From NCBI GenBank assembly GCA_963705255.1, contig OY970061.1, forward strand, positions 1,408,001 through 1,472,000: a stretch of 64,000 nt of DNA, read 5' to 3'. The translations under genes were made by a program, and so were the position numbers. Each line of letters begins with the position of its first letter. Position 1 is the stretch's first letter. Below, in pieces: positions 1,344-44,401 of this stretch. A model generated the notes under the pieces. The model had not been told where the DNA came from and did not search any database. It worked only from the letters and a program-made list of their open reading frames with translations. The stretch comes from an uncultured Methanoregulaceae archaeon (GTDB lineage Archaea; Halobacteriota; Methanomicrobia; Methanomicrobiales; Methanospirillaceae).

Positions 1344-1518
1344 CCCCGCCTCAGGGCCCCTACGGGGACCGACGAAGGCGGTCGAGAAGAACTCGTCAGA
1401 GGTTCTTCGAGTCACGGCGGGGCAAGGAGTTTTTTCAGTCACTGATCCGCCGCGGGGAGTCAATCGTCGCATCAGCGAGGATTGGCTGAAGAAGAACTCA
1501 TCAGAGTTCTTCGATTGC
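1344..1518. repeat. Mosaic palindromic intergenic element, locus 1 (core hairpins at 1384-1410 and 1488-1514; module A at 1448-1518)
   Basis: GAGAAGAACTC-GTCA-GAGGTTCTTCGA and GAAGAACTC-ATCA-GAGTTCTTCGA; 1448-1518 matches the reverse complement of 9431-9500. Confidence 0.85.
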
Positions 1519-1575
1519 GGCGGCGTTCATCCCAAAGGATTACGGAGGAACTCTAAATCGAAAAAACACGATGAT

Positions 1576-1998
1576 CTACTCACTCTTTCCTGAATCCTGC
1601 GGGTGTTCACCGGGCACCCAGCGGTCCCCGTCCCTGCGGAGCTCTTTTTTCCAGATGGGAACTCCCTTTTTTATCTCCTCGATGATGTAGCGTGAACCCG
1701 CATACGCTTCCGGGCGGTGGCCGGCACTGACGACAATGATCAGGATGTTCTCTCCTACCGAAAGCCGGCCAATCCGGTGAATGATATCGACGTGGAAAAG
1801 GTCATGGAGCCTCGTTGCATCCTCCGCAATCTTCTCGAGTTCCCGGCGTGCGACCTCCTCGTACGCCTCGAGCTCCATCTCACGGATATCATCGTCACGG
1901 ACGACCCCGTCAAACACGACAACGGCCCCGGTACCCGCCCGCTTCGCGTCGTTGATCAGCCTGCCGATATCGACATCTTCGTGCTGGATGGCAATCAT
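1576..1998 (-). CDS. moaE: Molybdopterin synthase catalytic subunit MoaE
   Basis: GAVVVFDGVVR, HRIGRL, SAGHR, IKKGVPIWKKE motifs. Confidence 0.93.
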   Translation of the reverse strand: MIAIQHEDVDIGRLINDAKRAGTGAVVVFDGVVRDDDIREMELEAYEEVARRELEKIAEDATRLHDLFHVDIIHRIGRLSVGENILIIVVSAGHRPEAYAGSRYIIEEIKKGVPIWKKELRRDGDRWVPGEHPQDSGKSE

Positions 1999-2012
1999 GA
2001 TACCCCGGTTAT

Positions 2013-2291
2013 TCATCCCCCGGCGACAGGGGGGAATACCGCAATCTCGTCGCCATCTGTCACCGTAAGCGTGACTGCATCGGACGCCTCAAGCCGCTTC
2101 CCGTTCCGCATCAGGATGACGAACTCCCGGAAATTGCCGTTCCCGTCAAAGATGGCATCATATCCTTCGCTGTTCTTCTTTGCAATGTCCTTTACCAGAC
2201 TCGCAAAGACTGTCCCCCTCTCTGGTTCTGCAAGAATATCCGTCCCGAGCAGTTCCCGGAACCGGGCAAAAAACCGTACCTTGACTGTCAT
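2013..2291 (-). CDS. moaD: Ubiquitin-like sulfur carrier MoaD/SAMP1-type
   Basis: VKVRFFARFRE start, GDEIAVFPPVAGG C-terminal di-glycine. Confidence 0.9.
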   Translation of the reverse strand: MTVKVRFFARFRELLGTDILAEPERGTVFASLVKDIAKKNSEGYDAIFDGNGNFREFVILMRNGKRLEASDAVTLTVTDGDEIAVFPPVAGG

Positions 2292-3046
2292 CTCTTTCTC
2301 CCCGTTGTTGTCTTTCTGGTATTCTTCCCGCCGCATACCGGGCAGGCCGGGTTTCTCTCAACGCAGATCTCCTCCGCACGTGCTTCCAGGCCGTCCCAGA
2401 GGAAGAGCCGGTCTGTCAGGAGCCTGCCTTCGCGGGTGAGATATTTCAGTACTTCTGTTGCCTGCACCATCCCGATGAGCCCGGGGGTCACCCCTACCAC
2501 CGGGAAGACTTCCTTTGGTGGAGCGCTCGGGAAGATGCACCTGAGACACGGAGTCACCCCCGGGAGGATGGTCGTTGCCTGCCCGTATAACCCGCGTATC
2601 GCGCCATGGAAGAGCGGGATGTTCTTTGTTACTGCCGCTTCGTTGAGGAGGTAACGGGTGGGGAAATTGTCCATCGCGTCCACGATGCCATCGGCACTGC
2701 CGGCAAGACTGAGGACATTCGTTTCGTCGATTGTGGTATCGATGACCTTCACCCGGATATCCGGGTTGATCTCACGAAGTTTCTCTCCTGCAGAAGAGGT
2801 CTTCTTCTTCCCGATGTCCCGGTCATAGTGCAGGATCTGGCGGTTGAGATTGGTCTGGTCCACGACATCCATATCGGCAAGAGTGATCGTCCCGACGCCT
2901 GCAACCGCGAGGTAGATGGATATGGGACAGCCCAGTCCGCCGGCGCCAGCGATAAATATCTTTGATTTTTTCAGCTTTTCCTGCCCTTCTTCACCGAAGA
3001 GCAGGATCTGTCGTTTATACCGATCAAGTTCGCGTTGGGATAACAT
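2288..3046 (-). CDS. moeB: HesA/MoeB/ThiF-family E1-like adenylyltransferase (UbaA)
   Basis: RYKRQI, GAGGLG, DQTNLNRQ, CLRC and CPVC zinc motifs. Confidence 0.92.
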   Translation of the reverse strand: MLSQRELDRYKRQILLFGEEGQEKLKKSKIFIAGAGGLGCPISIYLAVAGVGTITLADMDVVDQTNLNRQILHYDRDIGKKKTSSAGEKLREINPDIRVKVIDTTIDETNVLSLAGSADGIVDAMDNFPTRYLLNEAAVTKNIPLFHGAIRGLYGQATTILPGVTPCLRCIFPSAPPKEVFPVVGVTPGLIGMVQATEVLKYLTREGRLLTDRLFLWDGLEARAEEICVERNPACPVCGGKNTRKTTTGRKR

Positions 3047-3258
3047 GTTTCACCTGACTTCAGCCGGGATGTCCGAAATTATTCCGGACGGGGCGTCCGG
3101 GTCAGTTTCCAGAGATCTTTGTTTCATCATTGCCGGGAGGATTATTTATTGAATTTCGTTTCGGCAAATTTTTCCTGGTCTTCGGCTTCACGATGATATG
3201 CTGCAAAATACCCTTCGGACGACGCAGGTGTATCACTCCACGGGAAACGATCCGGCAG

Positions 3259-3693
3259 CTAATGCTGGCAGGTCAGGTCTTCCTCGTGGTCGTGGGAATG
3301 CGGGTTCTTCTCCTCCCATTCGGGCAGCCCGTGTCTCTTCCGGTAATCGTTGATCGCCTTGTGGATGCCTTCCTCCGCAAGCACCGAACAGTGCATCTTG
3401 ATCGGCGGGAGTCCCTCGAGGGCTTCTGCCACCGCCTTGTTGGACACCTCCCATGCTTCCTCCAGGGTCTTTCCCCGGACCAGTTCGGTTGCCATGCTGC
3501 TGGACGCAATTGCAGCACCACACCCGAAGGTCTTGAATTTTGCGTCGGTGATGATATTATTCTCGATCTTCAGAAAGATCTTCATGATGTCCCCGCAGAC
3601 CGGGTTCCCGACTTCCCCGACTCCGTCAGGGTTCTCTATCTCGCCCACGTTGCGGGGGTTCTTGAAATGGTCCATGACCTTGTCACTGTACAT
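3259..3693 (-). CDS. iscU: Fe-S cluster scaffold IscU/NifU-N
   Basis: YSDKVMDHFKNPRNVG, GNPVCGD, FGCGAAIAS, LPPIKMHCS. Confidence 0.96.
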   Translation of the reverse strand: MYSDKVMDHFKNPRNVGEIENPDGVGEVGNPVCGDIMKIFLKIENNIITDAKFKTFGCGAAIASSSMATELVRGKTLEEAWEVSNKAVAEALEGLPPIKMHCSVLAEEGIHKAINDYRKRHGLPEWEEKNPHSHDHEEDLTCQH

Positions 3694-4882
3694 TGCAGCC
3701 TCCTTCCTTCCCGCTCTTCTGGTACAAGGGAGACATGTCCCTCAAACGGGATACAACCTTCGGAAGCACATCCAGCACGAAATCCACGTCTGCCTCCGTG
3801 TTCACGTTCCCGAGGGTAAGACGGAGAGACCCGTGGGATATCTCTAGCGGGAGACCGGTCGCCAGCAGGACGTGCGAGGGTTCGAGGGATCCTGACGTGC
3901 AGGCGCTGCCGGTCGAGGCACAGATCCCCTCGTCGTCCAGCCAGAGGAGCATCGACTCGCCTTCGATGAACTCGAAACTGATGTTGATATTCCCGGGCAA
4001 CCGTTTTTCCGGGTGGCCGTTGAGATAGGCATGAGGTATCTTTTCCATGATCCCCTTGAGGAGACGATCCCGCATTGCCCGGATCCGCCGGTTATGTCCC
4101 TCGATATCGGCCGTCGCAAGCTCGATGGCTCTTCCAAGCCCGACGATGCCGGCAATGTTTTCCGTACCGGCACGACGCCGGCGCTCCTGCCCGCCACCAT
4201 GGATCAGGTTGTCGATCCTCACCCCTTTCCGGATATAGAGGGACCCCACCCCTTTCGGGCCGTAGAACTTGTGGGCGGAGAGCGAGAGCAGGTCGATATT
4301 CTGGGCCCTGACGTCGACCGGAAGATTCCCGATGACCTGAACGGCATCGGTATGGAAATACACCTTGTGCCTGCGGGCAATTGCCACCAGTTCGGCGATG
4401 GGTTCGATGGTGCCGATCTCGTTGTTGGCATACATGATCGTGATGAGGATAGTCTTATCCGTGATGGCTTTTTCAAGTTCCGCAGGGTCGACAAGCCCGT
4501 ATTTGTCTACCGGCAGATAGGTAACGGCAAAACCTTCCTTTTCCAGGTACTCGCAGGTATGGAGAACAGCATGGTGTTCAATCTTGGTGGTGATGATATG
4601 GTTGCCCTTCTTCCGGTTGGCAAAGGCAATACCCTTGATGGCCCAGTTGTCGGATTCACTCCCGCAGGAGGTGAAGTAGATCTCGTCCGGGTCTGCGCCA
4701 AGCGCCTTTGCGACCTGCGCACGGGCAATGTCAATCGCATTTTTGGAAGCGCGTGCGATGCTGTAAATGGAGGAGGGATTGCCAAAGTTTTCCGCATGAT
4801 AGGGGATCATTGCGTCCAGTACTTCCTTCCGGGTGTACGTGGTCGCGGAGTGATCCATATAGACGAGGCGTTTTTCTCCCAT
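3683..4882 (-). CDS. iscS: Cysteine desulfurase IscS/NifS
   Basis: YMDHSATT, SAHKFYGPKG (PLP lysine), STGSACTSG (catalytic Cys). Confidence 0.96.
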   Translation of the reverse strand: MGEKRLVYMDHSATTYTRKEVLDAMIPYHAENFGNPSSIYSIARASKNAIDIARAQVAKALGADPDEIYFTSCGSESDNWAIKGIAFANRKKGNHIITTKIEHHAVLHTCEYLEKEGFAVTYLPVDKYGLVDPAELEKAITDKTILITIMYANNEIGTIEPIAELVAIARRHKVYFHTDAVQVIGNLPVDVRAQNIDLLSLSAHKFYGPKGVGSLYIRKGVRIDNLIHGGGQERRRRAGTENIAGIVGLGRAIELATADIEGHNRRIRAMRDRLLKGIMEKIPHAYLNGHPEKRLPGNINISFEFIEGESMLLWLDDEGICASTGSACTSGSLEPSHVLLATGLPLEISHGSLRLTLGNVNTEADVDFVLDVLPKVVSRLRDMSPLYQKSGKEGGCNVQ

Positions 4883-5051
4883 TCTCTTCTCCGTATACCT
4901 GATTATGTGCGCCGTTCGCGGAATTATTCTTTCCCTACACGCTGGCGCCGTGACCAGCCACCTTTCCGGCCGCTGCCTTGCGGGGACTCCCGGGGAATGC
5001 AATCCCCACCGGACGGAAATAAAGGGCAGGATTTATCTGCTGTCAGGATAA

Positions 5052-5112
5052 ATTCACAATTGTGAATACAATCTATTATGTCGGGATTGTAACAACATAA
5101 AGGTTGTGTTGT
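5052..5112. promoter_or_regulatory. Putative operator palindromes in the divergent iscS / HTH-regulator promoter region
   Basis: Perfect 16-bp palindrome ATTCACAATTGTGAAT (5052-5067) and ACAACA-N9-TGTTGT (5092-5112). Confidence 0.45.
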
Positions 5113-5113
5113 A

Positions 5114-5461
5114 ATGGAATCTCCTTGCCAGAAGATCGTTTGGGATGTCCTGCCCGCAATCCGGGCGGCAATCGCTGTGGAGCTTGTCAAGTGTGGCGTC
5201 TCCCAAGTGGAAGCGGCGCGGATGCTCGAGATTGCACCCTCCGCGGTGTCGCAGTACCTGTCGGGGAAACGCGGGTACCGGATCGAATTTGAGAATGAGG
5301 TGAAAAAGTCCATCGAGCAATTGGCGCAGGACCTCAGGGACGGCAGGAACGTGAACCTCGTCCAGCGCACCTGTGACATCTGCCACCAGTTGCGGGAAGG
5401 CGAGGAGAGCCAGTGCGGCAGCTCCTCAGAGGCACCATCCAGAGAACGGTGCGGTTCATAA
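5114..5461 (+). CDS. HTH transcriptional regulator (COG2522-like), Cys-rich
   Basis: PC..IV..VLPAIRA, SQVEAARMLEIAPSAVSQYLSGKRG HTH, C-terminal CDIC. Confidence 0.85.
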   Translation: MESPCQKIVWDVLPAIRAAIAVELVKCGVSQVEAARMLEIAPSAVSQYLSGKRGYRIEFENEVKKSIEQLAQDLRDGRNVNLVQRTCDICHQLREGEESQCGSSSEAPSRERCGS

Positions 5462-5505
5462 ATCCACTCTTTCCTCCCATCCGTTTTGCCGCGTGTGATG
5501 ACACC

Positions 5506-6306
5506 ATGAGCGTTTCAGAAAAAAAGCAGGTTCTCCTCGGGAATATCCGTAAACAGGGCTCGATGCTCGTAGCCTTTTCCGGGGGCGTCGACAGCACCCT
5601 CCTGGCAGCCCTTGCACAGCTGGTACTGGGAGAGCGAGCCCGTTGCGTGCTCCTCGACAGTCCCGTGGTTCCCCGGTCAGCGGTGGAACAGGCACAAAAG
5701 ATTGCCGGAGAACTGGGACTCGCGCTCGATATCATCCGCGTCCCGCAGCTGGATGATGAAGAATTCTGTAAAAATTCATCAGACCGGTGCTATTACTGTA
5801 AAAAAATCTCAGCTGAGTACCTGAAGAAACGGGCAGGAGAACTGGGCCTTGCATGTATTGCGGACGGGATCAATGTCTCTGACATGGGCGAGCACCGCCC
5901 GGGCCTCACCGCGTCTACCGAGGAGGGGATCCTCCACCCGTTCATAGAGTCGGGGATAACCAAACAGGATATCCGAGCCATCGCAAAAGCGTGCAGCCTC
6001 CCGGTCTGGCAGAAACCGTCGGCTGCCTGCTTATCGTCGCGTATTCCCTACGGGGACCTGATAACCCCGGAAAAACTCCGCAGGATCGAAGAGGCAGAAG
6101 CCTTTCTGGCAGGACTGGGGATTGGTCAGCTGAGGGTCCGCATGCACGGGAACATTGCCCGGATAGAAGTACATAAAGAGGATATGGGAAAAATACTGGA
6201 TCTGCAGAGCACCATTGCAGGAAAACTCCGGGCTATCGGGTTTTCCTACGTCACACTCGACCTCGAGGGTTATCGCAGCGGCAGCATGGATGAAGTCCTG
6301 AAATAA
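5506..6306 (+). CDS. larE: LarE-family ATP-dependent sulfur transferase ([4Fe-4S]-type motif)
   Basis: AFSGGVDS PP-loop, RCYYCK, RPG, AACLSSRIPYG, LDLEGYRSGS. Confidence 0.9.
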   Translation: MSVSEKKQVLLGNIRKQGSMLVAFSGGVDSTLLAALAQLVLGERARCVLLDSPVVPRSAVEQAQKIAGELGLALDIIRVPQLDDEEFCKNSSDRCYYCKKISAEYLKKRAGELGLACIADGINVSDMGEHRPGLTASTEEGILHPFIESGITKQDIRAIAKACSLPVWQKPSAACLSSRIPYGDLITPEKLRRIEEAEAFLAGLGIGQLRVRMHGNIARIEVHKEDMGKILDLQSTIAGKLRAIGFSYVTLDLEGYRSGSMDEVLK

Positions 6307-6352
6307 TGTACTGCTGATGCATTCCCCGGAGGATTACCTTACGGAATATATC

Positions 6353-8048: not shown

Positions 8049-8051
8049 TCC

Positions 8052-8246: not shown

Positions 8247-8377
8247 ACGCTTAACCAGGTACTGGGCAGGCTCATCGGATAAATATCCGGTCTGTTCAAC
8301 GAACTAGCCGGATCCCCACCGGCAGCGACGCTTTGATTAAAAAGGAGCGATGAATAGGATACAGGAGTTTTGAAAGC

Positions 8378-9288: not shown

Positions 9289-9351
9289 ATTCGTCTTTGG
9301 TAACATGCCCATTTTTTTCTGAAAGAATCATCAGAAAACTCTCCTAACGCT

Positions 9352-9760
9352 ATTGGGGGAGACTGCTTTTCCCGAAGGGAAGAGCTGGCTGGAGAAGAAC
9401 CCGCAGGGTTCTTCGAACGGTATAGCCCTTGCAGTCGAAGAATTCTGGCGAATTCTTCTCCAATTAATCCTCGCTGATGCGACGATTAATTCCCCGCCGC
9501 TGCGGCAACCCCCATAATGCGATAGTCCCTCAGAAGGTTGGTGAAAAATCTCTGAAAAATAGGGAGAAGTAAAAAATCGGGGGTCAAGGGGATACTCCCC
9601 TTGCATTGCCTCCCCCTCCGGGGAGACTGCTGTTCCCGAAAGGAAGAGCTGGCTGGAGAATGTCTCGAACGTCATCAGACTTGAGACGGGAGAAGACCGT
9701 AGGTCTTCGATCGAACTTGTCAGAGTTCTTCGACTTGAAAGAGGGGGTCACCCTCATAAC
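9352..9760. repeat. Mosaic palindromic intergenic element, locus 2 (largest; modules B-C-A(rev)...B-D-E)
   Basis: Direct repeat GGGGAGACTGCT(T/G)TTCCCGAA(G/A)GGAAGAGCTGGCTGGAGAA at 9356-9396 and 9620-9660; core hairpins at 9392-9416, 9435-9460 (rev), 9690-9710, 9713-9733. Confidence 0.9.
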
Positions 9761-9900
9761 TGACAAATAATATACGAATTACAGGATGAAATAGGATTTT
9801 TAACGAGCCCGAAAATTATACTATCTGGCAATATTTACGAGACTCCTCCACCTCAGGGCCACTCCGGAATGAGGCGGGATAGAAAAAGTATACCCAAATC

Positions 9901-13307: not shown

Positions 13308-16082
13308 TCAATAGTACTTGAGGATGACGATCCCCTGGTAGCCGGCGCCACCGTTGGTGCCTGTCGTTCCGCTACCGCCACCGCCAGATCCATATCCCGT
13401 GGCAGACGATCCTGCCGCTTGAAGACCACCAGCACCGGCACCGGTGCAACCGGCACCGCCGGCTGTCCGCCCACCGCCAGAGGCTGCACCGCCACCGCCA
13501 CCACAGGAATACGTTATCGATGAGCCTGATATGGAAGATGCGGTTCCCGTGCCTCCTCCACCGCCGGCAGTAGTAGCAGCAGCAGTACCAGTAGCACCGG
13601 CGCCACCGCCACCGCCGCCAAGATAACTGCCTCCATTACTATTTCCGGCTCCACCATTGTTTCCACCCGTTGTGCCCGTTCCGCCAGCGTTTCCTGACCT
13701 TACGCCACCACCACCGGAACCTCCATTTGCTCCGGTATAATAAGTAGCATAATTACTGCCGCCACCGCCACCACCGGTTGCGGTAATCGTTCCAAATACC
13801 GAGTTGCCCCCATTGGTACCTCGAGTATTTATAGCTCGATGACCCGGCTCCACCGCCACCAACAGTTATCGTATAAGAACTGGATAAACCGGTTAATGTG
13901 CCGGTTAAGACTGCGCCAGCGCCTCCGCCGCCACCGTAGCGCCCTCCGCCACCGCCTCCTGCTACCACGAGGTAATCAACCTTAGTGGCGCCTGAGGGCA
14001 CGGTCGATGGACCCGATGAAGTGAACGTCTGGACGGTATAATAATCGTATTGGTCGCCAGATCCAGTTACGGATGTGCCGTTGGGGGTGGTGACGGTGAT
14101 GTCAACGATTCCGGCTGAACCGCCGGGGAGGTTGTTGTGAGAGTTGTACCGGTGTTTGTCAGGATGGGGGCCGTTGCGGTGCCAAACTTAACTGCAGTCG
14201 CCCCAATAAGGTTCGTCCCGGTGATCGTTACGGGTGTGCCTCCGGCTGACGGACCGGTTGTCGGTGAGATGCTGGTGACGGCCGGGACGGGATTGAATGT
14301 TGCCGAGATGGTATGGGCCGTTATCACGTTGGTGAAGGTATATGTGGCGATGATACCCTGCGATACGCCGTCTACAACGACATTGGCTATAGTATAGCCG
14401 GGGTTGCCGGTGGTCGGGAGTATCGAGTATGCCTGGTTCTGACCATAGACAACGCTTGTTGCACCCAAGGGGGAGATCGTACCGCCGGTTCCTGCCGAAG
14501 ACATGATGACCGGGTTCAATAAAAATGTTGCCGATATCGTGTGGTTCACCGTGACATTGAAGAACGTGTAACTGGTCGCGGTGCCGGTCGGCGATCCAAC
14601 GGGACTGCCGTCTACAAGGATAGTTGCAACATAATAACCGGTATTATTGGTGATGGTATACACCTGGTTGGCACCATAGTTTACGTTCACGACACCGGAT
14701 GGCGAGATCGTTCCGTTGGGGGTGGAGGCGGGGGCCGTTATCGTTAACGTGTTGATCGTAAACTGTGCATTTATCGCATGGCTCGCCGTCACCGGCGGGA
14801 AGGTGTAACTGTTCCCGGAAGGCGTGACATTCGACCCGTCGACGGTTACAAAACTGAGCTGGTAATTGGCATCCGGGGTGAAGGTAAATGACGGGGTGGC
14901 ACTGTAATTTACTGTTTGGATTATGCCGGGGCTTATCGCCCCATTGGCTCCTGCCGAGGGGGTTATCGTATACGTCAGACCCGCAAATGTTGCCGAGATC
15001 GTATGGTTTGCCTGCACGTTGGTAAATGTATAACCTGAAATGGAACCGTTCGGTACACCGTCCACGAGGACATTGGAGATAGAATAGCCGGTGGTATTGG
15101 TTATCGTGAAGCTCTGGTTGGCACCGGAGTTTACATTCACCATACCGGATGGCGAGATCGCTCCGTTGGAGCCGGCTGTGGCATTTATCGTATAGGTTTG
15201 GATCGCGAACCTTGCCGATATCGTATGGTTCGCTGTCACCGGCGGGAAGGTGTAACTGTTCCCGGAAGGTGTGACATTCGACCCGTCGACAGTTACAAAA
15301 CTGAGCTGGTAATTGGCATTCGGGGTGAAGGTAAATGACGGGGTGGCATTGTAATTCACCGTTTGTAGCGTGTTGGGGCTTATCGCCCCGTTGCCTATAG
15401 CCGACGGGGTTATCGTATACTGGTTAATCGCAAATGCTGCCGAGATCGAATGATCTGATGTGACACTCGGGAATGTGTAGGCTGGCACGGCCCCTACCGA
15501 ACTGCCGTCAACTGCCACATCCACAATATGATAACCGGTATTGGGGGTGATAGTGAATTGCTGGCTGTCACCGTAAATTACACCAACTGTGCCGTAGGGG
15601 GAGATCGTTCCTCCGGTCCCGGCTGTTGCCGTTATGGTACGGGATGCAAGGGGCATACCATTCTGCCCAAAATACGCAGAGGCTAATATGGCAGGCGAAG
15701 AAGCCCCGGTATACACGATCTGTACGCTTTTCGCTCCATTCGGGTTCGGGTCAACATAGGTCAGCGTCTCGCCGATGGACCAGGACTGCCATGAAGAATC
15801 CGTCCCTTTCTGAAATGGTTCCACAGTTCCATCGACAAGGATCTGTATGGCTGAACTCTGCAATGTATCCCCCCCGTTATGGTAGATTTGGATCGTGTGC
15901 CCGACGCTGGAGATGATTGCATCCAGAGCAGGGATGTTCACAGGAGTGGGCTGAGACAGCACCGCAACACCGATGACTGCTGCAGCAGTAACCCCGATCG
16001 AGATGAGCAGGACGGCGCCGATAACCTCTGACACGCCGGATTCACGGGTACTGGTCTTTTTCGATTGCTGCACGCGGTACAT
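13308..16082 (-). CDS. Giant type IV pilin-like adhesin (~920 aa): class III signal, tandem Ig-like repeats, IPT/TIG, C-terminal Gly-rich domain; two frameshifts (near 14125 and 13835)
   Basis: ESG/VSEVIGAVLLI pilin N-terminus; repeated YTITPSAGANGAISP...HTISATF units; PAVTSISPTTGPSAGGTPVTITG; downstream frames VDYLVVAGGGGGG...GYQGIVILKYY. Confidence 0.8.
14788..15348. repeat. Internal near-identical 114-nt duplication in the adhesin pilin (14788-14901 and 15235-15348, period 447 nt)
   Basis: GTCACCGGCGGGAAGGTGTAACTGTTCCCGGAAGG...GACGGGGTGGCA occurs twice with few mismatches. Confidence 0.85.
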
Positions 16083-18244: not shown

Positions 18245-18429
18245 AATCTATTAACTCGTGTATTGTTTAGGTTATAAAGATGTTAGTACATAATCCATCG
18301 GATATTCGGGTAGACACTCTGCCGGCAGGATATACTGCTGGGTCTGGTCCCATTCTAACTACGAAGGATCTCGCGTCTGTTGGATGCAACTTGCTCACTC
18401 AGATGCCCCGGGGGAATTCGGCATGTTGA

Positions 18430-18515
18430 ATCTCGAAGAGATGAGACATGAGAAGAACCCGCAGGGTTCTTCGAACAAAGGCTCCGCGGTCGAAGAATTC
18501 TGATGAATTATTTTT
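18430..18515. repeat. Mosaic palindromic intergenic element, locus 3 (inverted core-hairpin doublet)
   Basis: 18450-18476 is identical to 9392-9418 (GAGAAGAACCCGCAGGGTTCTTCGAAC), followed by an inverted hairpin TCGAAGAATTCTGATGAATT as at 9435. Confidence 0.85.
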
Positions 18516-18634
18516 AGGCACGTTTATCTACAGAGCGGCAGCCGGGCCTAAGAAGAGTTTTGAATTACGGACACCTAATAGTAAGATTACTTTTCAGGAC
18601 CGACCGCCTTCCGGTCCGGAAACAGGTGCAAACC

Positions 18635-21157: not shown

Positions 21158-21217
21158 TATCGTTTTTAACTCTGTAGAAACCTTGTTTTATCGTGTGATT
21201 CGTTTATATCTTTGATG

Positions 21218-21477
21218 GTTATGAGTGTGACCCCTCTCTCAAGTTGAAGAACCCTCCTGGTTCTGAGCGGTTCATCAGAACCTCTAAGACGAGAAGAGTT
21301 CATCAGAACTCTTAGAACTCTTCTCCAGCCTGTTCTTCCCTTCGGGAACCTGAAAGGTTCATCAGAATGTCGAAGGTCGAGCCTTTGCCTCCCTTCTCAT
21401 TCTCGGGATTTGTTAACCCCTCGAACCTTGAAGGAGAGAAGAATTCGTCAGAATTCTTCGAACAGCAGTCTCCCCCA
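21218..21477. repeat. Mosaic palindromic intergenic element, locus 4 (module E rev; module B rev split by module F)
   Basis: 21218-21253 matches the reverse complement of 9723-9760; 21320-21349 plus 21464-21477 rebuild the reverse complement of module B; 21351-21461 matches 44288-44401. Confidence 0.9.
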
Positions 21478-21522
21478 AGAGCACCCATGAGGAAAGCCGA
21501 TGATTTCTCCAGCGCCTCGTTT

Positions 21523-22149
21523 TTATCTTCCGAAGCGGCGTATCCGCGCCTGATAGTCCCGCAGGATCCGCAGGAAATCCACTTTCCGGAAAAATTTCCA
21601 GTTAACATCGGAGAAGAAGAGCTCGGAGTACACCGACTGCCAGATCAGAAAATCGGTCAGGTGATCCCCCCCGCTCTTGATGACAACATCGGGGGTGTAC
21701 TGGAAGGTCAGGCAGGACTCGATGAGCCTTTCGTTGACAGAATCCGGAGGGACATGATCCTTTGCCATTTTCCTGATGCACCCGGTAATCTCTTCCCTGC
21801 CGCTTTTACCAGCGGCAACAACAACTTCCATGCCTGTTCCGGTAATCTCCTCCCTGTCACCGACATGCACGGCGAGATGTGCTATTGTACCGATTTTGCG
21901 GATTTCCTCCAGATACTCAAGGTTTTCAGGAGTGGTTGTAGCAATATGGAAGACAAGGCTGTGGATCCCCGGACAGGGCGGCGAAGTGCACCGGGATACG
22001 TATGACGAAATCTCGTTGCACCACGACGTGACTTTGTAGAGGTTCCCTGGTGCATCGGCCATGTCCTGCCCGCTGATCATGAAGCATACATGCCCGGGGA
22101 GTTCCGTTATCCGTCGCATGAGCATGCGCTCGTAGAGCCAGTAAATCAT
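21523..22149 (-). CDS. cis-prenyltransferase-like non-catalytic (Nus1/NgBR-like) subunit
   Basis: PDVVIKSG, LTDFLIWQSVYSELFF, C-terminal RRFGR; the DGNRR motif is replaced by ISGQD. Confidence 0.8.
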   Translation of the reverse strand: MIYWLYERMLMRRITELPGHVCFMISGQDMADAPGNLYKVTSWCNEISSYVSRCTSPPCPGIHSLVFHIATTTPENLEYLEEIRKIGTIAHLAVHVGDREEITGTGMEVVVAAGKSGREEITGCIRKMAKDHVPPDSVNERLIESCLTFQYTPDVVIKSGGDHLTDFLIWQSVYSELFFSDVNWKFFRKVDFLRILRDYQARIRRFGR

Positions 22150-30223: not shown

Positions 30224-31409
30224 CTATCCGAAATACCTGATGAGAGCAAGAACCGCTATCACGAGTATGATCGGTGAATGGGCGGTGGCATCAGTGAAAT
30301 GAAATGCCAGTGGGGCGACGCCTGCCGTCAGGTCTGCGGTGAATAAGGCGACCAGAAGTGAGGGGAAAAATTCCCGGATCCGGTTGTACCTCTAACCAGC
30401 GACATAGATATAATTGTTCGCGTTCACCGAAATACCACCGGTATTCTCGAACTGGCCGTTGCCAATACCTCCGGCACCCCACTGCGTCACATACGTTCCG
30501 TCCGGTGTGAACACCTGGACCCGGTTGTTTCCCCAGTCAGCGACATAGACATTGCCGTCAGCGTCCACGGATATGCCCCCGGGATTTTCGAACTGGCCAT
30601 TGCCGGTACCCCCGGCACCCCACTGCGTCACATACGTTCCGTCCGGTGTGAACACCTGGACCCGGTTGTTTCCCCAGTCAACGACATAGACAGAGCCGCT
30701 CGCGTTCACCGCTATTCCATCAGGATACCAGAACCGGCCGTTGGCAGTACCGCCAGAACCCCACTGCGTCACATACGTTCCGTCTGGCGTGAACACCTGG
30801 ACCCGGTGATTAAAGGTATCAGCGACATAGACAGAGCCGCTCGCGTTCACCCCTATGCCCTGAGGATACAGGAACTGGCCGTTGCCAATACCTCCGGCAC
30901 CCCACTGCGTCACATACGTCCCGTCTGGTGTGAACACCTGGACCCGGTGATTGTAGGTATCAGCGACATAGACAGAGCCGCTTGCATTCACCGCTATCCC
31001 ATCAGGATACAGGAACTGGTTGTTGCCAATACCGCCCGCACCCCATTGCGTCACGTACGTCCCGTTTGACATGAACTCCCCGATCCGGTTATTCCCGGTG
31101 TCAACGACATAGACAGAGCCACTTGCATTCACCGCAATGCCCTCAGGATACTGGAACCGGCCTTTGCCAACACCGACACCGCCCCACTGCGTCACGTACG
31201 TCCCGTCTGGCGTGAACTTCCATACACTGTTGGTGTACCCGTCCGTTGCATAGACAAAGCCTGCGCTGTCCACGGCAACAGAGGTGGGGTGCACCCCGGA
31301 CAGGGAGGGAATCGCCGGCTGGGATGCAGGTGACATGTCTGCTGATACGAACCCGCCCACTAGGGCGGATGCAAGCAGGAAGCTGAAAAAGGGTAAGGAG
31401 GCCTTTCAT
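30224..31409 (-). CDS. Secreted NHL-repeat beta-propeller protein; extra T in the signal peptide, in-frame TAG at 30392-30394, then a partial PKD-like segment and hydrophobic tail
   Basis: 47-aa repeats PxGIAVNASGSVYVADTxNHRVQVFTPDGTYVTQWG; frame stays open past the TAG to 30224. Confidence 0.75.
30400..31290. repeat. Tandem 141-nt NHL coding repeats
   Basis: CCCCACTGCGTCACATACGTTCCGTC recurs with 141-nt period (e.g. 30477, 30618). Confidence 0.9.
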
Positions 31410-36449: not shown

Positions 36450-36577
36450 CTCCTCTTTTCTGTCTCTGTCCGGGCCGGCTTCCAGTACCCGGAGATCACT
36501 CTCTTTCGGGGCCGGCCCGGAGAGGGAGTGGTAATGGTTCATCCCCTTCGCCGGATACCCGGCCGGTCTCCGGTCAG

Positions 36578-39500
36578 TTACCGGGGTTCTTTCCCGCTCC
36601 TGTATGCTCCTTTCGGCACCGTGATCTCGAACCGGGCGCCTTTGCCATGGGTCCCCGTCTCGTGGATGAATATACCAGTGATAGCCAGGATCTCCCGGGC
36701 AAGGAAGAGGCCAAACCCCGTATTCTTGCCATATCCTTTCTCAAAGATCTTCTGTTTCACGTCGAGCGGGATCCCGATGCCGTTGTCCTGGACAGTTATC
36801 ACCATCTCTTCGCCCTCGATCCCGCACCTGACCGTGATTGCTGTCACCCGCTGCCCGTGCCGGACCGCATTGTCGAAGAGGTTGAAAAAAACCTTCTCGA
36901 GCATCGGGTCGGCGAATATCTCATAACTCCCGCAGGAGTAGGTAACGGCCAGGTTCTGGGGTTCAGCGGCTTTGACAACATCCCTGATCCGGTACCATGC
37001 AGGGGTCTCGACCCCCAGTTCCTGGTAGGTCCGCGTAAACTCGATCTGCCGCTGGATCATGCTTACTGCTTTCTCGATCTTGGCAAGGAACCCCGCAATG
37101 ACAGGATCGGGCCTGGTGTGCTGGGAGAGCTGGGTATACCCGAGCACGATGGTGAGCTGGTTTGCAACATCGTGGCGGGTGATGCTGTTGAGGAGGTTCA
37201 GTTTCTCGTTGGCCCGGTGGAGGGCTTCTTCAGCCTGCTTCCTGCCGGTCATATCCCGGAGAGCGACAATATTTGCCGGATCTCCCTGGTACTGGATCTT
37301 CGTACCGATCGATTCGATCCAGATGCCCTTTCCATCCGGAGCCCACGCCCGGTAGGTCTGGAGGTAGCTGTCGGTTCCCGAGATGACATTCTGCATGTCC
37401 CGGATAACAGTATCCCGGTATTCCGGTGAGATGAAATCAAGGATATTTTTCCCGATCACGAGCGCCGGGTCCGGTATCCCGAACATCCGGAGGATACTTG
37501 GGTTCACGTAGAGGATCTTCCCCGTGAAGTCCTGGATGAGAACACCGTCGAATGCAAAGTCCGTGAGGATCCGGTAGCGCTCCTCGCTCTCCTGCAGGTT
37601 TTTCTCAATGGCGCGGCGGCCGGAAATATCCCGGCACAGGGTGATGATCCGGCCGATCCCGCCCTCGCGGATAAGCGTTGCATTGATCTCGACCGGCGTA
37701 ATATGGCCCGCGGCGTCCACATAATCGATCTCAAAATTCCTTATGAGCCCGTCACGGACGCATTGCTGTACCGCAGCGGTATTTTTCTCCCTCTCGTAAC
37801 CGGCTGTCCAGTCAAGTACGCTCCGCCCGAGGATCTCTTCAAGATCCGTATGGCCGGTCAGGGCGACATACCTGGCATTGGCATCGAGCACCTTCCCCTC
37901 ATTATCGATAATCACGTAGCCGGTATCTGTCGTTTCGACGAGGGAGCGGTACTTTTCCTCGCTTGCCCTGAGTGCCTCGCCGCTATGCGCCAGATTCTCA
38001 TACTGCTGCCGGAGCTCTTCTTCCACCGCGGTAAGCTGTTCATAGGCTTCCTTCAGCCGGGACTCGCTCTCTTTCCTCGAGGTGATGTCAAAGATGACCC
38101 CCGAGAATATCAGTTCGTTTCCATGGACGACCGGGCTTGACATGGCCTGGAACCAGATCGTCTCTCCGGTGGGTTTGACGAACCGCCCCTCGAAATTCCA
38201 CTTTTCAGGGTCTTTCACCACGTGAGCGACAGTCTCCATGAACCGCGGCAGGTCGTCTGGATGGACATGGCTTACAAACCACGGGAAGAAATCGGTGATG
38301 GTCTGGTCAACCCCGAAGATCTCCCCGGAACGGGCACTCACGTACGATAGCCCCATGCTCCCGTCGGGCCTGGCAAAGAACTGGTAGATAACCCCCGGCA
38401 CGTTGGCTGCAATCTCCTCCAGCTGCTGCTGCCGCTTCCGTACCTCCTGCTCGCTCCTCACGAGTTCCTCGGTACTGGCCGCGGAGCTCTTCCTCGGCAG
38501 CCATCAGCTGCTCGTTTGCGACCCGCAGTTCGTCCTCGGTCTGCTTCTGCTCCGTAATGTCCCGGATGGACTGGATGGCGCCGGCAACCTCACCCTTCTC
38601 ATTGCAGAGCGCCCGTGCCTTGCACCACAGATCGACACGGTGCCCGTTCAGGACCGCATTGTCGGTTTCCGCAGTCAGGGTATTGCCGGATTTTTTTATG
38701 GAGATGTACATCTTTTCCGCTTCGTCATCCGGCCTGAGGAGATGGTCGGCAAGGATGGGCCTCCGGACACCGTAGAACGGGACCGCATAGTCATAGTCCC
38801 CCTTCCCGATCATGTCTGCCGCGGGTATGCCGGTCATCTCTTCGATGGCATGGTTCCATGCGATGACATGGCCGCTCGTATCGATTGCAAACGTAGCATC
38901 GGGAAGGAAGTCGATGATCTCTGCCAGCCTTTTCTCTGATTCATGGAGTGCCTGTTCCGCCTGCTTCTGCCGGGTGTTGTCTATAAAGGTCTCGAGGAGG
39001 CAGGCTCGCCCCTGAAGGTCGATCGGGACGACGTACTTGATGATGGATACGCTGGACCCGTCAGCGGTCAGGAGGACGCGTTCGCTGTTGTCCACTGCCT
39101 GGCCCATATCTGAAACCGGGCACTTTCCCTGTTCAGCCGGGCAGATAAACTGGTGGCAGGGTTTCCCGATGAGGTTCTCTTTCTTCCCCCGGTACATCCT
39201 GACCGCCGAAGGATTGAGATCGAGGATCTCGTGGGTCGCTGCATCGATGATGGCGATCCCTGCCTGCACGGCTCCAAAAATGCGCTTGAGATACTCCTCG
39301 CTTGCCTTCAGGCTCTGTTCGCTCTCCCTGAGCGCCTGTTCTGCCCTCCTCCGGGACACGACCTGCCGTACCTGGTGGGCCAGTTCAGCGAACTGAACAT
39401 CCGGGTCGCCACCTTTCTGCAGGTAAAAGTCCGCGCCGTTGTTGATCGCCTCGATGACCACCTCTTCACGCCCCCGGCCGGTGAAGAGGATGAACGGTAT

Positions 39501-39722
39501 ATCTCCAAATGAGCGGCGTACGTTCTTCAGGAGCTCGATGCCGTCCATCCCCGGCATCTGGTAATCGGCAATGATGGCATCGTACGGTTTTTTTGCCAGT
39601 TCGGCAAGTGCCTCCTCCCCAGACAGGACGGTCCTGACATTGAACTCCCCGGTACTTTCGAGGAAGATCTGGCCGATCTCGAGCAGGTTCGGCTCGTCAT
39701 CAACATACAGGAGGGAAAACAT
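36578..39722 (-). CDS. Receiver-PAS(x5)-histidine kinase; frameshift near 38472
   Basis: LLYVDDE receiver, several PAS/PAC repeats, ITRHDVANQ, ADPMLEKVFFNLFDNA, GFGLFL. Confidence 0.9.
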
Positions 39723-39848
39723 TTCATGGCCCCGGGCGGTGCGTCAGGCAGGTTGTCTGTCGAAGATGCAATTGTCTTGATAAAAGATGAATGTTCCGAG
39801 TTGCGGAGCCGGGTTGCATACCGGTGGGAAAAACAGGACCGGCCCGAA

Positions 39849-40091
39849 ATGAACAGGCCCCCGGGCCTGATCGACATGGGGATGATTGCGTCCATCTTCC
39901 TCCTCTCCTCCGCGTTCCAGAAAGGGCTCCCGCAGAAGCAGCTCCCGCCTTACATCCTCCTCGCGGTCCTGCTCATCTCCTTTCTCATCCCCCTTGCGGT
40001 CTTCATTACCCGGGGAATCAGTTTTGCATCCCTGGTCACGCTGCTCAACTTCTTTGGCTGCGGGTCGCTCGTCACCACCGGGAGTTTTTAA
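39849..40091 (+). CDS. Small hydrophobic hypothetical protein or fragment
   Basis: Hydrophobic segments only. Confidence 0.3.
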   Translation: MNRPPGLIDMGMIASIFLLSSAFQKGLPQKQLPPYILLAVLLISFLIPLAVFITRGISFASLVTLLNFFGCGSLVTTGSF

Positions 40092-40378
40092 GGATATCGT
40101 CATAGAGAACCGTGATCTCCGCCCCGATGACTACGAGGGGTGGGTGCGGTTGGGATGGATCGGATGAATCAAAACGGATTATCATTCAGGCAGACGGGAA
40201 GGGAGAGCAGGGAACTGACTGTCCCGGATCAGCCAGGGACCCAGGGTGATTGTTCCGTTTCACCCTTCTCCTTTTCAAGCCTTTGTTGACCGGTACGTTG
40301 CACTGACCCTCCGGTAACACCATTGCGAACAATTAAGTGCGGCTGCCCTTACCATTCAGATAGGTACACGGGTTTACC

Positions 40379-42149
40379 ATGAATGACATCCAGCGCCTTT
40401 TTATCCTGTGGAAGGATTACCGGAAGGTACCTACTCCTCTCAATCCTCCTCACGATTGGCGGGGCGATCGGCACGCTCGCCATCCCCGCCCTCTCGCAGG
40501 CCCTGATCGATCAGGGCATCCGCAACAGCGACCTCCCCCTGGTCATCCGGTACGGGGGGTACATGTTCGTCCTCACGCTCGTTGCCGCAGCCTGCCAGGT
40601 TCTCAATACGATCATCGCGGTGCGATTCTCCGAAGAGACCGCCGATTACCTACGGACCGGCGCGTACGACCGGGTCCAGCAGCTCTCGTTCGGCAACCTT
40701 GATCGTTTCCGGTCAAGTGACCTCCTCGTCCGGCTCACGAACGATATCCAGAACATCAAGATTGCCATCCAGCAGGGGATCCTTAACCTGCCGCTCGTGC
40801 CGGTCATGCTCGTCATCACTATCCTGCTGATTGCCCTCCGCTCTCCGGCCCTGATCTGGCTCATGATCGTGCTCCTCGTCGTGTTTGCCGCTCTACTCGG
40901 GGCATACCTCTGGGTCGTGCTCGCGATCTTCGCGGACCGGGAGGAGAAGGTCGACGCGATGAGCGGGGCGCTGCAGGAGAGCATGACCGGGATCCGGGTG
41001 GTCAAGGCATTCGTGCGCCAGACGTTCGAGAACCAACGGTTCGCCCGGTCGGCCGGGGAAGTGAAAGCCGTCTCGGTCCATGCCCAGACCTGGATCGCCG
41101 TCCTGATCCCGGCAATGCTGCTGGCGGTCAACCTTGCGGTTGTCGCGATCTTCTGGGTCGGGGGATTTGCGGCTTTGTCCGGGGCGGGTTTTTCAACCGG
41201 CGAGGTGATTGCGTCCGTACAGTACCTCTTCCTCCTCATCATGCCGTTTATGATTCTCGGGACGGTCCTGCCGGCGATCTCGGCCGCACGCCCCTCCCTT
41301 GGGAGGATCTTCGAAGTCCTCGATACGCAGGCTGACGTGACCGACAGCGACCATCCCGTCGCCCCGGACCCGGCATCGGTACAGGGCAGGCTCGTCTTCG
41401 ACGGGGTGAGCTTCGGGTACCGGGAGAGCGACGGGACGCCGGGCCCGCTCGTCCTGCAGGAGATCAGTTTCACTGCAGGGCCCGGCGAGACGATCGGCTT
41501 TCTGGGCCCCACCGGTTCCGGCAAGTCGACGCTCGTGCACCTCGTCCCCCGGTTCTATGACCGCACCGCGGGGAGTATAACGATCGACGGCATCGATATC
41601 CGGCAGATCCCGCAGGATACGCTCCGGGAGATCGTGGGGATCTGCCTCCAGCAGCCGACCCTCTTCTTCGGCACGATCCGGGAGAACCTCCTCTTTGCGG
41701 CAAAAGACCAGTCTGACGAGAATATGATCGCAGCCGCAACCGATGCGGATGCAGACGGGTTCATCCGGAACATCCCCCTGCAGTACGACGACACCGTTGC
41801 CCGGCACGGCACGAACTTCTCCGGCGGCCAGCGGCAGCGCCTCGCGATCACCCGCACGCTTGCCGCACAGCCCAGGATCCTGATCCTTGACGACAGCACC
41901 AGCGCCTGCGATGTCGCTACCGAGGCGAGGATCCAGGATGCGATCAACCGCCGGTTCTCGAAGGTCACCAAGCTCCTCGTGGCGCAGCGGATCAGCACCG
42001 TCATCGCAGCGGACCGGATCATCCTGTTGGAGAACGGTAGGATCGCGACCTCCGGCACCCACGAGGAGCTCCTGCGCACGAGCTCCCAGTACCGGGAGAT
42101 CTACGATTCCCAGCTCGGGAAAGGCGTGACCGCCGGGGGTGCGCCATGA
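40379..42149 (+). CDS. Heterodimeric ABC exporter subunit 1 (TMD+NBD, degenerate DD site); N-terminal frameshift
   Basis: GPTGSGKST, FSGGQRQR, ILDDSTSA; true start MNDIQRLF at 40379. Confidence 0.9.
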
Positions 42150-43946
42150 GCGGCAGGCTGGCGAAGCGTGACGGCGAGACCATGCCCCCGATCATCCCCA
42201 CGACCGTGAGGTTCCTCCGGTACCTTGCCCCGTACCGGCTGAAACTTGCCGTCGTGATCCTCCTCATGGCCGTCTTCGCCCTGACGAACGCGGTCTTCTC
42301 CCTCGAACTCGGGACCGCCACCAATATCATTTCTGCAGGACGGGGGCCGACCGGGCCGCTGGAACAGGTAGTCCTCCTCCTCGCCGCTGCATCGGTCGTC
42401 ATCTGGGTATCGGGCACGGTCTCGCAGAAGCTCCTCTCCGGTATCTCGCAGGAGGCACTTCTCCGGCTCCGGACCGAACTCTTCAGCCACATCCAGACGC
42501 TCTCGCTCGACTTCTTCGACCGGCGGCCCATCGGCGAGCTGAATGAGCAGGGTTACGAACGACACCCAAGTGATCGAACAGTTCATCAACATCGGGATGC
42601 TCCAGACCGGGCAGGAGGTTATGACGATCGTCGTTACCAGCATCATCATGCTCGTTGTCAGCCCGGAACTGACGCTCCTCTCGTATATTGTCGTCTTCGC
42701 GCTCGTCGGGGTCTCCTGGCTGATCACGAGGACCTCCGGCCCTGCATTTGTCCTGTTGCAGGAGAAGACCGAGGACCTGAACGGCTTTGCGGAAGAGTGG
42801 CTGTCCGGCGCAAAGACGGTGATCGCATGCCGGCGTCAGGGTGAGGCATCGCGCAGGTTCGGGGCGATGAGCGGCAGGGTTGCAAAGACGGGCGTGAAGG
42901 CGCAGTTCTCCTCGCTCATCAGCCAGCAGGTCTCGAATGTCTTCACCACGGTCCTGATCGTCGTCCTCCTCGTCTTTGGCGGCATCATGGTCATGGAGGG
43001 GATGGCCGAGATCGGGATGCTGATCGCGTTCATTGCGTTCTCGTTCAACCTGCTGAACGCGTTCACGACCATCTTCTCGGTCTACGGCCAGATCCTGAAC
43101 GCGATCGTGGGAGCTGCCAGAGTCTTCGAGGTCCTTGACGAAGAGCCGACGGTAGCGGACCGGAAGGACGCCCCCGCGATGCCCCCCGTTGCCGGGGATG
43201 TGGTCTTCGACAACGTGGACTTCTCGTACATCCCGGGCCGCCGGGTGCTCTCAGGTAATTCGTTCCACACGAAGCCGGGACAGGTCTTCGGGCTCTGCGG
43301 GCCGACCGGCGCCGGCAAGAGCACCATCATCAATATCCTGACCCGGTACTACGATATCGCGGGGGGCTCGATTGCGGTCGATGGGAACGACGTGCGGTCC
43401 GTGAAACAGGACACCCTCCGTATCCAGATCGCCCAGGTGCTGCAGGAGCCGTTCCTCTTCTCGGACACCATCATGGCCAACCTGAAATATGCCCGGGAAG
43501 GGGCGACGGACGAGGAGTGTATCCAAGCGGCACGACAAGCGAACGCCCACGGATTCATCCTGCAGCAGCCGAAGGGATATAAGACCGTGCTCGTGGACGG
43601 GGGGGCGAACCTCTCGCAGGGCCAGCGTCAGATGCTCACCATCGCCCGGGCTATCGTGGCGAACCCCCGGATGCTGATCCTTGACGAAGCGACGTCCAAC
43701 GTGGATACCCGTACCGAGAAACTGATCCAGGAAGACCTCCTCGCGCTCCAGAAGGACAAGACCTCGTTCATTATCGCCCACCGGCTTTCCACGATCAGTC
43801 ACGCCGACCAGATCCTCGTCATCGACAAGGGGAGGATCATCGAACAGGGTACACACGCAGAACTGATGGGGAAGAAAGGATTCTATTACGAGCTCTACAT
43901 GAGCCAGTTCCGCGGGAAACTTGAAGGGGTCGTCAGAATAGAGTGA
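42146..43946 (+). CDS. Heterodimeric ABC exporter subunit 2 (TMD+NBD); frameshift near 42542
   Basis: GPTGAGKST, LSQGQRQ, ILDEATS, IAHRLST. Confidence 0.9.
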
Positions 43947-44103
43947 ACAGGAAATAACCACGACTTTTTTTAAGAACAACTGCCCACGGAAAGCAGGTTC
44001 ATGGGGCCTGATGTACGCTACCGGGATCTTCTGATCGCATCCGCCGCATCGCTGCCGGAAGGATGTACGTGAAAGCGTCTTGTCAGAAGAAAAATACGGA
44101 AAA

Positions 44104-44177
44104 CGGGCCTGAAGGGATTTGAACCCTTGACCTGCGGATTAAGAGTCCGCCGCTATGCCGAACTAAGTGACAGACCC
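44104..44177 (-). tRNA. tRNA-Lys (anticodon CTT)
   Basis: GGGTCTG/CAGGCCC acceptor stem, GCGGA-CTCTTAA-TCCGC anticodon arm, AAGGG-TTCAAAT-CCCTT T arm. Confidence 0.9.
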
Positions 44178-44236
44178 AAGCCAGTTAGACCTAATAATGT
44201 GGTCGATAATGCCGAATAAATGTTTTGGAATGGGGA

Positions 44237-44401
44237 GGGTCATCAGACCCGACCCAGGAGAAGACCGAAGGTCTTCGACCAAGCGGTTGAAAGTGAGGGT
44301 CATCAGGATGTCGAAGGTCGGCTTCTGCCTCCCTTCTCCTTCTCGGGGTTTGATAACCCCTCGAACCTTGAGGATAAGAAGAACTCATCAGAGTTCTTCG
44401 A
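44237..44401. repeat. Mosaic palindromic intergenic element, locus 5 (modules D and F)
   Basis: GTCATCAGAC...GGAGAAGACCGAAGGTCTTCGA matches 9671-9710; 44288-44401 matches 21351-21461. Confidence 0.9.

Follow-up and report, generated by a model that had tools for sequence, protein, structure and literature searches.

Five intergenic loci carry two-layered hairpin repeats

The stretch of DNA analysed here, called the window (64,000 nt; G000:C1:1408001-1472000), comes from the methanogen genome G000, a single contig of 2.6 Mb that is 89.5% complete. It carries hairpin repeats at five loci, all of them intergenic. The repeats are real and mobile, and their mosaics consist of two layers, old outer scaffolds and inner cassettes. 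The original prediction described a dispersed family of about 12 core hairpins at these loci, and the cores are present: seven match the pattern GAGAAGA-N4-16-TCTTCGA exactly, against none in 100 shuffles, and the remaining five exist in imperfect form, decayed or split. Cores 1488 and 44376 begin AAGAAG, cores 18490 and 21291 are decayed, and core 9713 forms the right-hand part of a hairpin that the insertion 9661-9712 divides. The modules A to F into which the mosaics had been divided do align with each other at 82-95% identity (A 58/70, B 39/41, C 54/66, D 34/40, E 32/36, F 92/107), the reverse copy of B (21320-21477) being two separate pieces (26/28 and 25/29), but they are overlapping pieces of cassettes and scaffolds, not natural units.

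Motif mapping in G000 resolved two fixed-order scaffolds, alpha and beta, the latter a MITE (a miniature transposable element with inverted repeats) of the IS5 family. These scaffolds and two reverse-strand cassettes (21368-21425 and 44309-44365) had been overlooked and are added to the inventory below, where TIR stands for terminal inverted repeat and G089 is a sister genome about 4% diverged.

1265..1530, plus strand: alpha scaffold with a TIR-like left end at 1265, a conserved core 1344-1530 and two cassette slots, no right TIR found; present in G089
1368..1412, plus strand: cassette, 45 nt; absent in G089, which has a clean empty site without duplication; skipped by 2 contigs of run X6
1458..1516, plus strand: cassette, 59 nt; G089 is longer here by 58 nt (extra cassette)
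9293..9810, minus strand: beta scaffold (IS5-family MITE), TIRs decayed
9360..9418, plus strand: cassette, 59 nt; replaced in G089
9433..9491, minus strand: cassette, 59 nt, copy of module A; replaced in G089; DNA fold z = -7.0
9624..9735, plus strand: older cassette, second hairpin split after GAGAA by a later insertion
9661..9712, plus strand: cassette, 52 nt, nested in 9624..9735; G089 has a further 49-nt cassette 5' of it at the same point
18424..18476, plus strand: free cassette, 53 nt, common to G089
18488..18516, minus strand: decayed second hairpin of an opposed cassette
21168..21516, plus strand: beta MITE with TIRs and 8-bp duplication (21160-21167 = 21517-21524), between convergent genes
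21240..21350, no strand assigned: split reverse-strand cassette; a plus-strand cassette nested at about 21262-21318 is absent in G089
21351..21463, plus strand: cassette, first hairpin interrupted by cassette 21368..21425
21368..21425, minus strand: cassette, 58 nt; absent in G089, 3-nt microhomology
44233..44403, plus strand: two plus-strand cassettes in a free stack close to tRNA-Lys; a single chimeric cassette in G089
44309..44365, minus strand: cassette lying within hairpin 1 of the stack's second cassette (module F)

A looser core pattern, lacking the first G, was used for genome-wide counting and gave 186 matches in 113 clusters in G000, against 1 for the reversed control, so the family is not limited to the window region. 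Only five of the 186 lie inside genes (crude gene calls covering 74% of G000), as the predicted intergenic restriction would have it. Perfect stems of at least 7 bp occur in 158/186 cores, the pattern itself forcing 5, with 38 stem variants. This is the unbiased figure for stem pairing; a covariation count on 46 distinct 22-nt hairpins is partly circular, because those hairpins had been chosen for pairing. Rfam searched on the window at gathering score returned tRNA-Lys only and no match for the repeats. The beta interior at 9571-9646 has a weak likeness to Rfam Clostridiales-2 (24.6 bits against a gathering score of 58.6, E 0.002), a name absent from the main text of PMC5737381.

The mobile unit is a cassette of two adjacent hairpins

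The cassettes are non-coding, 45-62 nt long and built of two hairpins that directly adjoin. Hairpin 1 runs from base 1 and is followed by NGA, hairpin 2 (GAAG..CTTC), GA and two further bases. Units begin TC, TG or AG, the hairpin foot is NGA, and hairpin 1 usually has a tandem GA/GA internal loop in its stem; cassettes have near-terminal palindromes and no terminal inverted repeats. Of the 224 second hairpins that a looser grammar located in G000, 98 lie free, 85 sit in beta, 36 in alpha and 5 in both scaffolds. A first hairpin lies directly upstream of 163 of the 224, compared with 12 after shuffling, and among these 163 cassettes 142 are 50-60 nt long and 117 have tandem GA in hairpin 1. 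First hairpins pair up with many different second hairpins across G000, and for orphan second hairpins no open reading frame was found between the second and a first hairpin.

The hairpin signatures are of DNA type and lie on one strand only. Loops read R-N-A or R-N-N-A with a closing pair that is mostly C-G; such triloops make up 81/152 in the repeats and 18/200 elsewhere, and the tetraloops 136/283 and 34/252. Loops of hairpin 1 follow R-N(N)-A on the cassette (GA/GA) strand in 99/121 cases in G000 and on the opposite strand in none, and in other genomes (n = 180) the split is 129 to 1. The bases closing the GA/GA of hairpin 2 pair in 333/593 cases against 206 expected from base frequencies. 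In DNA, GNA triloops have unusual stability, as do sheared GA pairs in tandem. DNA folding of window cassettes gave two adjacent hairpins for four of five longer or shorter ones; three had z < -3.8 and two folded no better than shuffles. A 47-nt two-hairpin indel at G000:C1:1340105-1340152, with GAA loops and without the GAGAAG core, is absent in G089 and is possibly a second cassette class.

Cassettes differ between sister genomes and decay neutrally in place

The comparison with G000 covered 40 regions of G089 that add up to 800 kb, about 30% of the sister genome; 605 kb aligned. All five window loci exist in both genomes and their cassette content differs at four, so copies are not fixed at orthologous loci; contigs of public runs reproduce two of the window differences. 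Unique anchors on either side were available for 41 G000 cassettes; in G089, 18 of these are missing or replaced, some of them along with a whole MITE. About 16 single-cassette indels (38-64 nt, read by eye) show no duplication longer than 3 nt, and the unit gained or lost consists of a single hairpin 1 and a single hairpin 2, both on the same strand. At G000 1591896 and 2132832, clean indels were seen at unique sites that lack homologous flanks. Three further indels are crossovers between shared cores; at the stack 44233..44403, G089 is 118 nt shorter by a crossover within the shared AGAAGA.

The 23 cassettes shared by both genomes differ at 13 of 386 stem positions (3.4%), compared with 3.8% in unique intergenic DNA, and 11 of the 13 changes break a pair. 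Cassettes are under no selection in place, and shared copies decay neutrally. The hairpin structure is therefore kept by whatever copies the cassettes and not by selection in situ.

Insertion favours a loose motif that resembles the cassette's own end

Upstream of the insertion point, T at -7 occurs in 32/37 site clusters of G000 (one cluster chains 84 sites) and in 53/72 non-tandem clusters from other genomes. Over 123 pooled non-redundant sites, T stands at -7 in 68%, at -8 in 48% and at -6 in 51%, giving a loose motif (C/T)-T-(T/G)-(C/G) at -8 to -5 followed by variable positions -4 to -1. This spacing is that of the cassette's own 3' end (CTTC, GA, two bases). The resemblance explains the stacks, the insertions after GAGAA in older cassettes and the arrival of new units 5' of old ones. 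Among 18 same-strand neighbours within 70 nt, 15 are 50-58 nt apart; the split after GAGAA seen at 9624..9735 recurs as full and empty sites at G000 1759017 and 1902482; and newcomers sit 5' of older cassettes at the same base at window 9661 and at G000 1268302 and 1622650. At G000:C1:1622556-1622752 cassettes enter at one base directly behind a tRNA gene, and G089 has an extra cassette 5' of the shared one.

Two other targeting rules were rejected. A purely structural target, the hairpin foot, covers 16/123 sites (3 in shuffles, 4-10 at other offsets). An integron- or IS110-type crossover within the CTT motif is excluded because empty sites retain the target's own bases beyond the motif.

The beta scaffold is an IS5-family MITE

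By its ends the beta scaffold is an ordinary IS5-family MITE, because it has TIRs, an 8-bp duplication, an intact parent, presence/absence differences between genomes and flanking genes that nearly abut elsewhere. Fifteen of 22 TIR pairs have at most two mismatches over 8 nt, and in the window copy at 21168-21516 both TIRs and duplication are exact. An intact 1.0-kb element with the same TIR and 8-bp duplication is found in G019 and G117. The autonomous elements (L420, L421, L424) are 1005-1007 bp long with an 8-bp duplication; L420 and L424 score 215 bits on NCBIfam NF033579 (IS5 family, cut-off 140), the two G019 transposases lie above the IS5-family cut-off. G000 itself carries fragments of the IS5 element only. 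For five beta MITEs, the whole element occurs in only one genome of the pair G000 and G089. Both genes that flank locus 4, which are convergent, were in the locus in 27 other genomes, and in 22 of these only 12-23 nt separate them. Module E and the flanks of B are the interior of this MITE, and the single family first described is not supported; the match to a known mobile-element family covers the beta layer only.

The alpha scaffold is present in 89/108 genomes of the genus. Its ends are unproven: a TIR-like left end occurs in 9/54 copies, and two end pairs have at most two mismatches. In three genomes (G048, G042, G044; L001, L002, L017) alpha copies form facing pairs 0.6-1.6 kb apart, and the pair at L001 encloses a 301-aa gene without annotation. 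A decayed alpha-like stub lies at window 9845-9880, just outside the beta MITE.

High copy number is patchy across the order

Copy number is bimodal among the 108 genus genomes: 21 have 29-193 cores, one has 14 and the rest have at most 10. On a one-gene tree of the 30 best-matching genomes the high-copy label needs at least three changes, and low-copy kin of high-copy genomes (G059, G088) keep a few relic cassettes. Among 301 drawn genomes of the order, expansions recur in other f1 genera and in f3 and f5; none of the genomes of f4 (39) and f6 (54) has more than six core matches. Public named records with the same core are mostly Methanoregula (among the matches listed, which comprise 80 of the 109 loci).

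Three bacterial assemblies, titled bacterium, Lachnospiraceae and Sarcina, have 71, 15 and 6 core matches. These copies (G124-G126; L077, L109, L079, L082 and others) have the same linker, core and upstream hairpin, and mostly sit inside a longer constant repeat with inverted subterminal arms. We treat them as look-alikes of the archaeal cassettes. Three viral scans returned 5, 0 and 37 loci, none with cassette anatomy.

None of the mover families searched follows the cassettes

Among the families searched, none known to mobilize DNA matches the cassette distribution. The result covers selected families and not the whole proteome, so G000 may still contain an unrecognised mover gene; it draws on 108 genomes or, for some families, on five, many genomes are incomplete, and kin are not independent. 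The RAYT or Y1 enzyme suggested at the outset found no support: the RAYT model NF047646 matched in 0/5 genomes tested, and a Y1_Tnp domain is missing from G000 and present in one of five other core carriers. IS903-type DDE transposases (weak control) and IS110 were likewise found in 0/5 genomes. IS91 Y2 also gave 0/5, which is no evidence of absence because the control was silent. A reverse transcriptase was seen in one of five genomes, a Drt4-like gene at G000:C1:315961-317547 (L369; 238 bits, cut-off 450) in an AT-rich island.

Several broader families were tried and rejected as movers. GIY-YIG (PF01541) occurs in 100/108 genomes, nearly all with one long frame per genome and extra short matches in few; no short GIY-YIG gene lies beside L371, and none is common to the high-copy genomes. 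DUF559 occurs in 19/108 genomes but in only 2/21 high-copy ones. The IS5 transposase is found in 68/108 (14/21 high-copy, 54/87 others), with fragments only in G000. TnpB-like genes occur in 80/108, and no cassette lies in the flanks of those of G000. Two short TnpB-like genes of G000 (about 250 aa; G000:C1:2543266-2544018 and 2035084-2035863), with a similar one in most of the genus at 1-2 copies, look domesticated. The sole tyrosine recombinase in G000 (G000:C1:2539628-2540609, L368) scores as archaeal XerA (NCBIfam) and was rejected since its dif-like site is unlike the cassette targets; this site, a perfect 11-6-11 palindrome just upstream of the gene, is single in the genome.

A multicopy Hjc-like family was also rejected, being present in 100/108 genus genomes while the query had no match in f3 and f5, which carry cores. 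Its representative, L366:2677-3063, belongs to a family of about 115 aa without annotation, with 13-14 copies in G000 and a possible lead to Hjc/Mrr-like nucleases, and it is part of a 2.6-kb module duplicated near-identically at G000 2058180 and 2467829. A second family without annotation (167 aa; L366:3744-4244 and paralogues) has a cassette about 45-55 nt upstream on the opposite strand in 4/6 full G000 copies, and is the most recurrent non-housekeeping cassette neighbour in other genomes (7 loci). Repeat-flanked genes in G000 are housekeeping or small toxin-antitoxin-like genes.

Transfer as single-stranded DNA is the probable mechanism

We consider the cassette to be a non-autonomous element similar to REPINs and to palindrome-associated transposable elements (PATEs), probably moved as single-stranded DNA by a putative trans-acting enzyme. 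The cassette folds on one DNA strand as a nicked dumbbell; it would be cut out as single-stranded DNA and closed end to start, and be rejoined 4 nt behind the loose (C/T)-T-(T/G)-(C/G) motif resembling its own 3' end, the strand-transfer enzyme acting in trans. This would leave no duplication and would yield head-to-tail stacks, nesting in older cassettes and fixed slots in IS5-family MITEs. The MITEs would then carry cassettes to new places, and crossover at shared GAGAAG would swap hairpins and collapse stacks. The build of the cassette, the precision of the indels, the bias in targets, the neutral decay, the patchy expansions and the IS5 parent of beta are observed; we infer the single-stranded circle, the direction of each event and the enzyme. 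Precise ends, no duplication, one-strand signatures and a 3'-end-like target match the logic of peel-and-paste elements, in which target and right end are read alike (PMC6006769), and of the single-stranded circle model for bacterial interspersed mosaic elements (BIMEs; PMC3333891). More tentatively, the cassettes might represent a class of minimal (45-62 nt) single-stranded DNA dumbbell transposons recognised by their sheared-GA hairpins and with own-3'-end-like targets, which colonise other mobile elements, occur across Methanomicrobiales and in some gut bacteria, and depend for movement on a strand-transfer enzyme outside the Y1, Y2, DDE, DEDD, reverse transcriptase and tyrosine-recombinase families, either a new family or a co-opted host enzyme.

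Several results weigh against transfer by such an enzyme. The Y1 domain (PF01797) is found in 0/21 high-copy genomes and 5/108 overall, with positive controls, and neighbour clustering over 260 loci gave no candidate enzyme among the recurrent neighbours. At the empty site G000 2132832 each end lies 2 nt away from where the boundary is predicted. Roughly one site in three has no T at -7, the 'no G at -8' rule derived from G000 failed out of sample (12/72), and no signal was found 3' of the site after removal of stacked cassettes. Two genomes, G000 and G089, cannot separate gain from loss, and slots within scaffolds can be filled or emptied by gene conversion. No clean circle junction was found in the assembled contigs of four runs, and GC skew is flat in G000, so no replichore bias is readable.

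A first alternative is that no dedicated mover exists now, and that old seeding has been followed by gene conversion between scaffolds, slippage at GAGAAG and hitch-hiking on IS5 MITEs. It would account for the 126/224 cassettes inside scaffolds, the three crossover indels, the five whole beta MITEs found in only one sister genome and the failure to find an enzyme. We regard it as unlikely in view of the clean indels at unique sites without flanking homology (G000 1591896 and 2132832), the target bias over 123 non-redundant sites and the intact structure kept family-wide despite neutral decay in place. Cores and alpha are also uncoupled: G046 and G052 have 98 and 59 cores without alpha, and conversely alpha reaches 58 copies in G043, where no core occurs, and 80 in G044, where there are 5.

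Rather improbable as well is that the host's own housekeeping enzymes move the dumbbells, be it a type IA topoisomerase or a ligase together with a structure-specific nuclease, copy number then being set by past acquisition of a cassette in the lineage. Joining of single-stranded DNA by type IA topoisomerases leaves no duplication, the high-copy genomes are not tracked by any mobile enzyme family searched, and the same core occurs in three archaeal families and three bacterial genomes. Relic cassettes in G059 and G088, close kin of high-copy genomes, nevertheless fit loss of a trans-acting factor better, and the site of the single XerA does not resemble the targets.

We give very little weight to the cassettes being PATEs of an IS200/IS605 element with a transiently visiting TnpA. 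Their size, the lack of TIRs and duplication and, more loosely, the 5' target motif are as in the 52-bp terminal-only PATEs described in PMC3119063, where strain-specific insertions occur even with broken TnpA genes. The conserved target bases of the cassettes, however, lie 5-8 nt from the joint and do not adjoin it, and IS200/IS605 ends are not shared: nine Y1 loci have no cassette end beside them and no core, and 30 TnpB loci have one core. An RNA role kept for the host (terminators, stabilisers or protein-binding sites) is equally remote: 36/113 clusters lie between convergent genes compared with 265/1293 large gaps, and some cassettes follow tRNA genes, but decay is neutral and pair-breaking, turnover between the sister genomes is 44%, orientation is independent of the neighbouring gene, the GNA triloops are of DNA type and no Rfam family reaches gathering score.

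Cassettes resemble known hairpin elements but fail their defining tests

The reading as an element transferred as single-stranded DNA invites comparison with PATEs, SMRs and REPINs. The cassettes work like these elements but fail their defining tests. With the PATEs and SMR-A of Haloquadratum walsbyi, as presented in PMC3119063, they have in common that they are archaeal and enzyme-free, with a pair of palindromes, insertions that vary between strains and leave the target unduplicated, entry into the palindromes of other elements and, more loosely, a motif on the 5' side of the target. They differ in that no IS200/IS605 parent was found, that this motif is loose and set back by 4 nt, that the two hairpins are unlike and directly adjoin, that terminal inverted repeats are lacking (unlike SMR-A), and that the hosts are IS5 MITEs and older cassettes.

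Repetitive extragenic palindromic (REP) elements, BIMEs and REPIN-RAYT systems (PMC3333891, PMC6006769) are also high-copy, extragenic, clustered hairpins with mosaics and patchy lineage-specific expansion, and their single-stranded excision-insertion model fits the cassettes too. Membership as first proposed is not supported: cassettes have no GTAG or CGTC tag and no GTAG foot, are not an inverted pair of one REP and are without RAYT/Y1 in high-copy genomes. For archaea, Quentin et al. report the IS200 subclass only. The CGTC-tagged REPs (PMC3733652) and the NTS repeats of the Ssn GIY-YIG nucleases (PMC11893778, the main text of which does not mention archaea) are likewise RAYT-free hairpin repeats, cut a few bases outside the hairpin. 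Cassettes differ from both by lacking the CGTC tag and any short GIY-YIG gene that the high-copy genomes share. A GAGCGAAGCGA-type motif occurs in some first hairpins and may be a further likeness to these repeats.

Compared with ordinary IS5-family MITEs, with which it shares the TIR and 8-bp duplication of the 1.0-kb element in G019 and G117, beta is distinguished by an interior made up of slots in which cassettes can be exchanged. BOX elements of streptococci and the attC sites of integrons have modular interiors, take up new units at a fixed point and keep their structure as sequence drifts. Cassettes are alike in these respects. They differ in having no open reading frames, no integron integrase (the one tyrosine recombinase in G000 being XerA) and insertion at free sites too.

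The picture of a non-autonomous, intergenic, mosaic hairpin family in a methanogen is borne out. No published description of the cassettes was found in the literature searched, subscription papers, supplements and ISfinder lying outside the search; PMC12306157 gives generic REP counts for six archaea, none of this order. How RAYT-free hairpin repeats spread is stated as open for CGTC REPs and haloarchaeal SMRs in PMC3733652 and PMC3119063. The cassette family makes this question testable: its ends are exact, its targets obey a rule, full and empty sites number in the dozens, and gene content can be compared between close relatives that differ in expansion (G087/G088; G019, G058/G059). An enzyme that inserts 50-nt folded DNA scarlessly, whatever the sequence of the stems, would represent novel chemistry and might serve as a tool; if no such enzyme exists, the cassettes would be selfish repeat DNA of unusually regular build.

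Other differences and repeats in the window

Between the window and G089, the tRNA-Lys(CTT) gene at 44103-44178 shows two neighbouring mismatches close to its 5' end, and past its 3' end G089 has unrelated DNA. A gene at 14067-16082 has repeats of about 447 nt, one whole unit of which is missing in G089. At 30392-31360, at least five 141-nt repeats encode a beta-propeller-like protein, presumably of NHL type.

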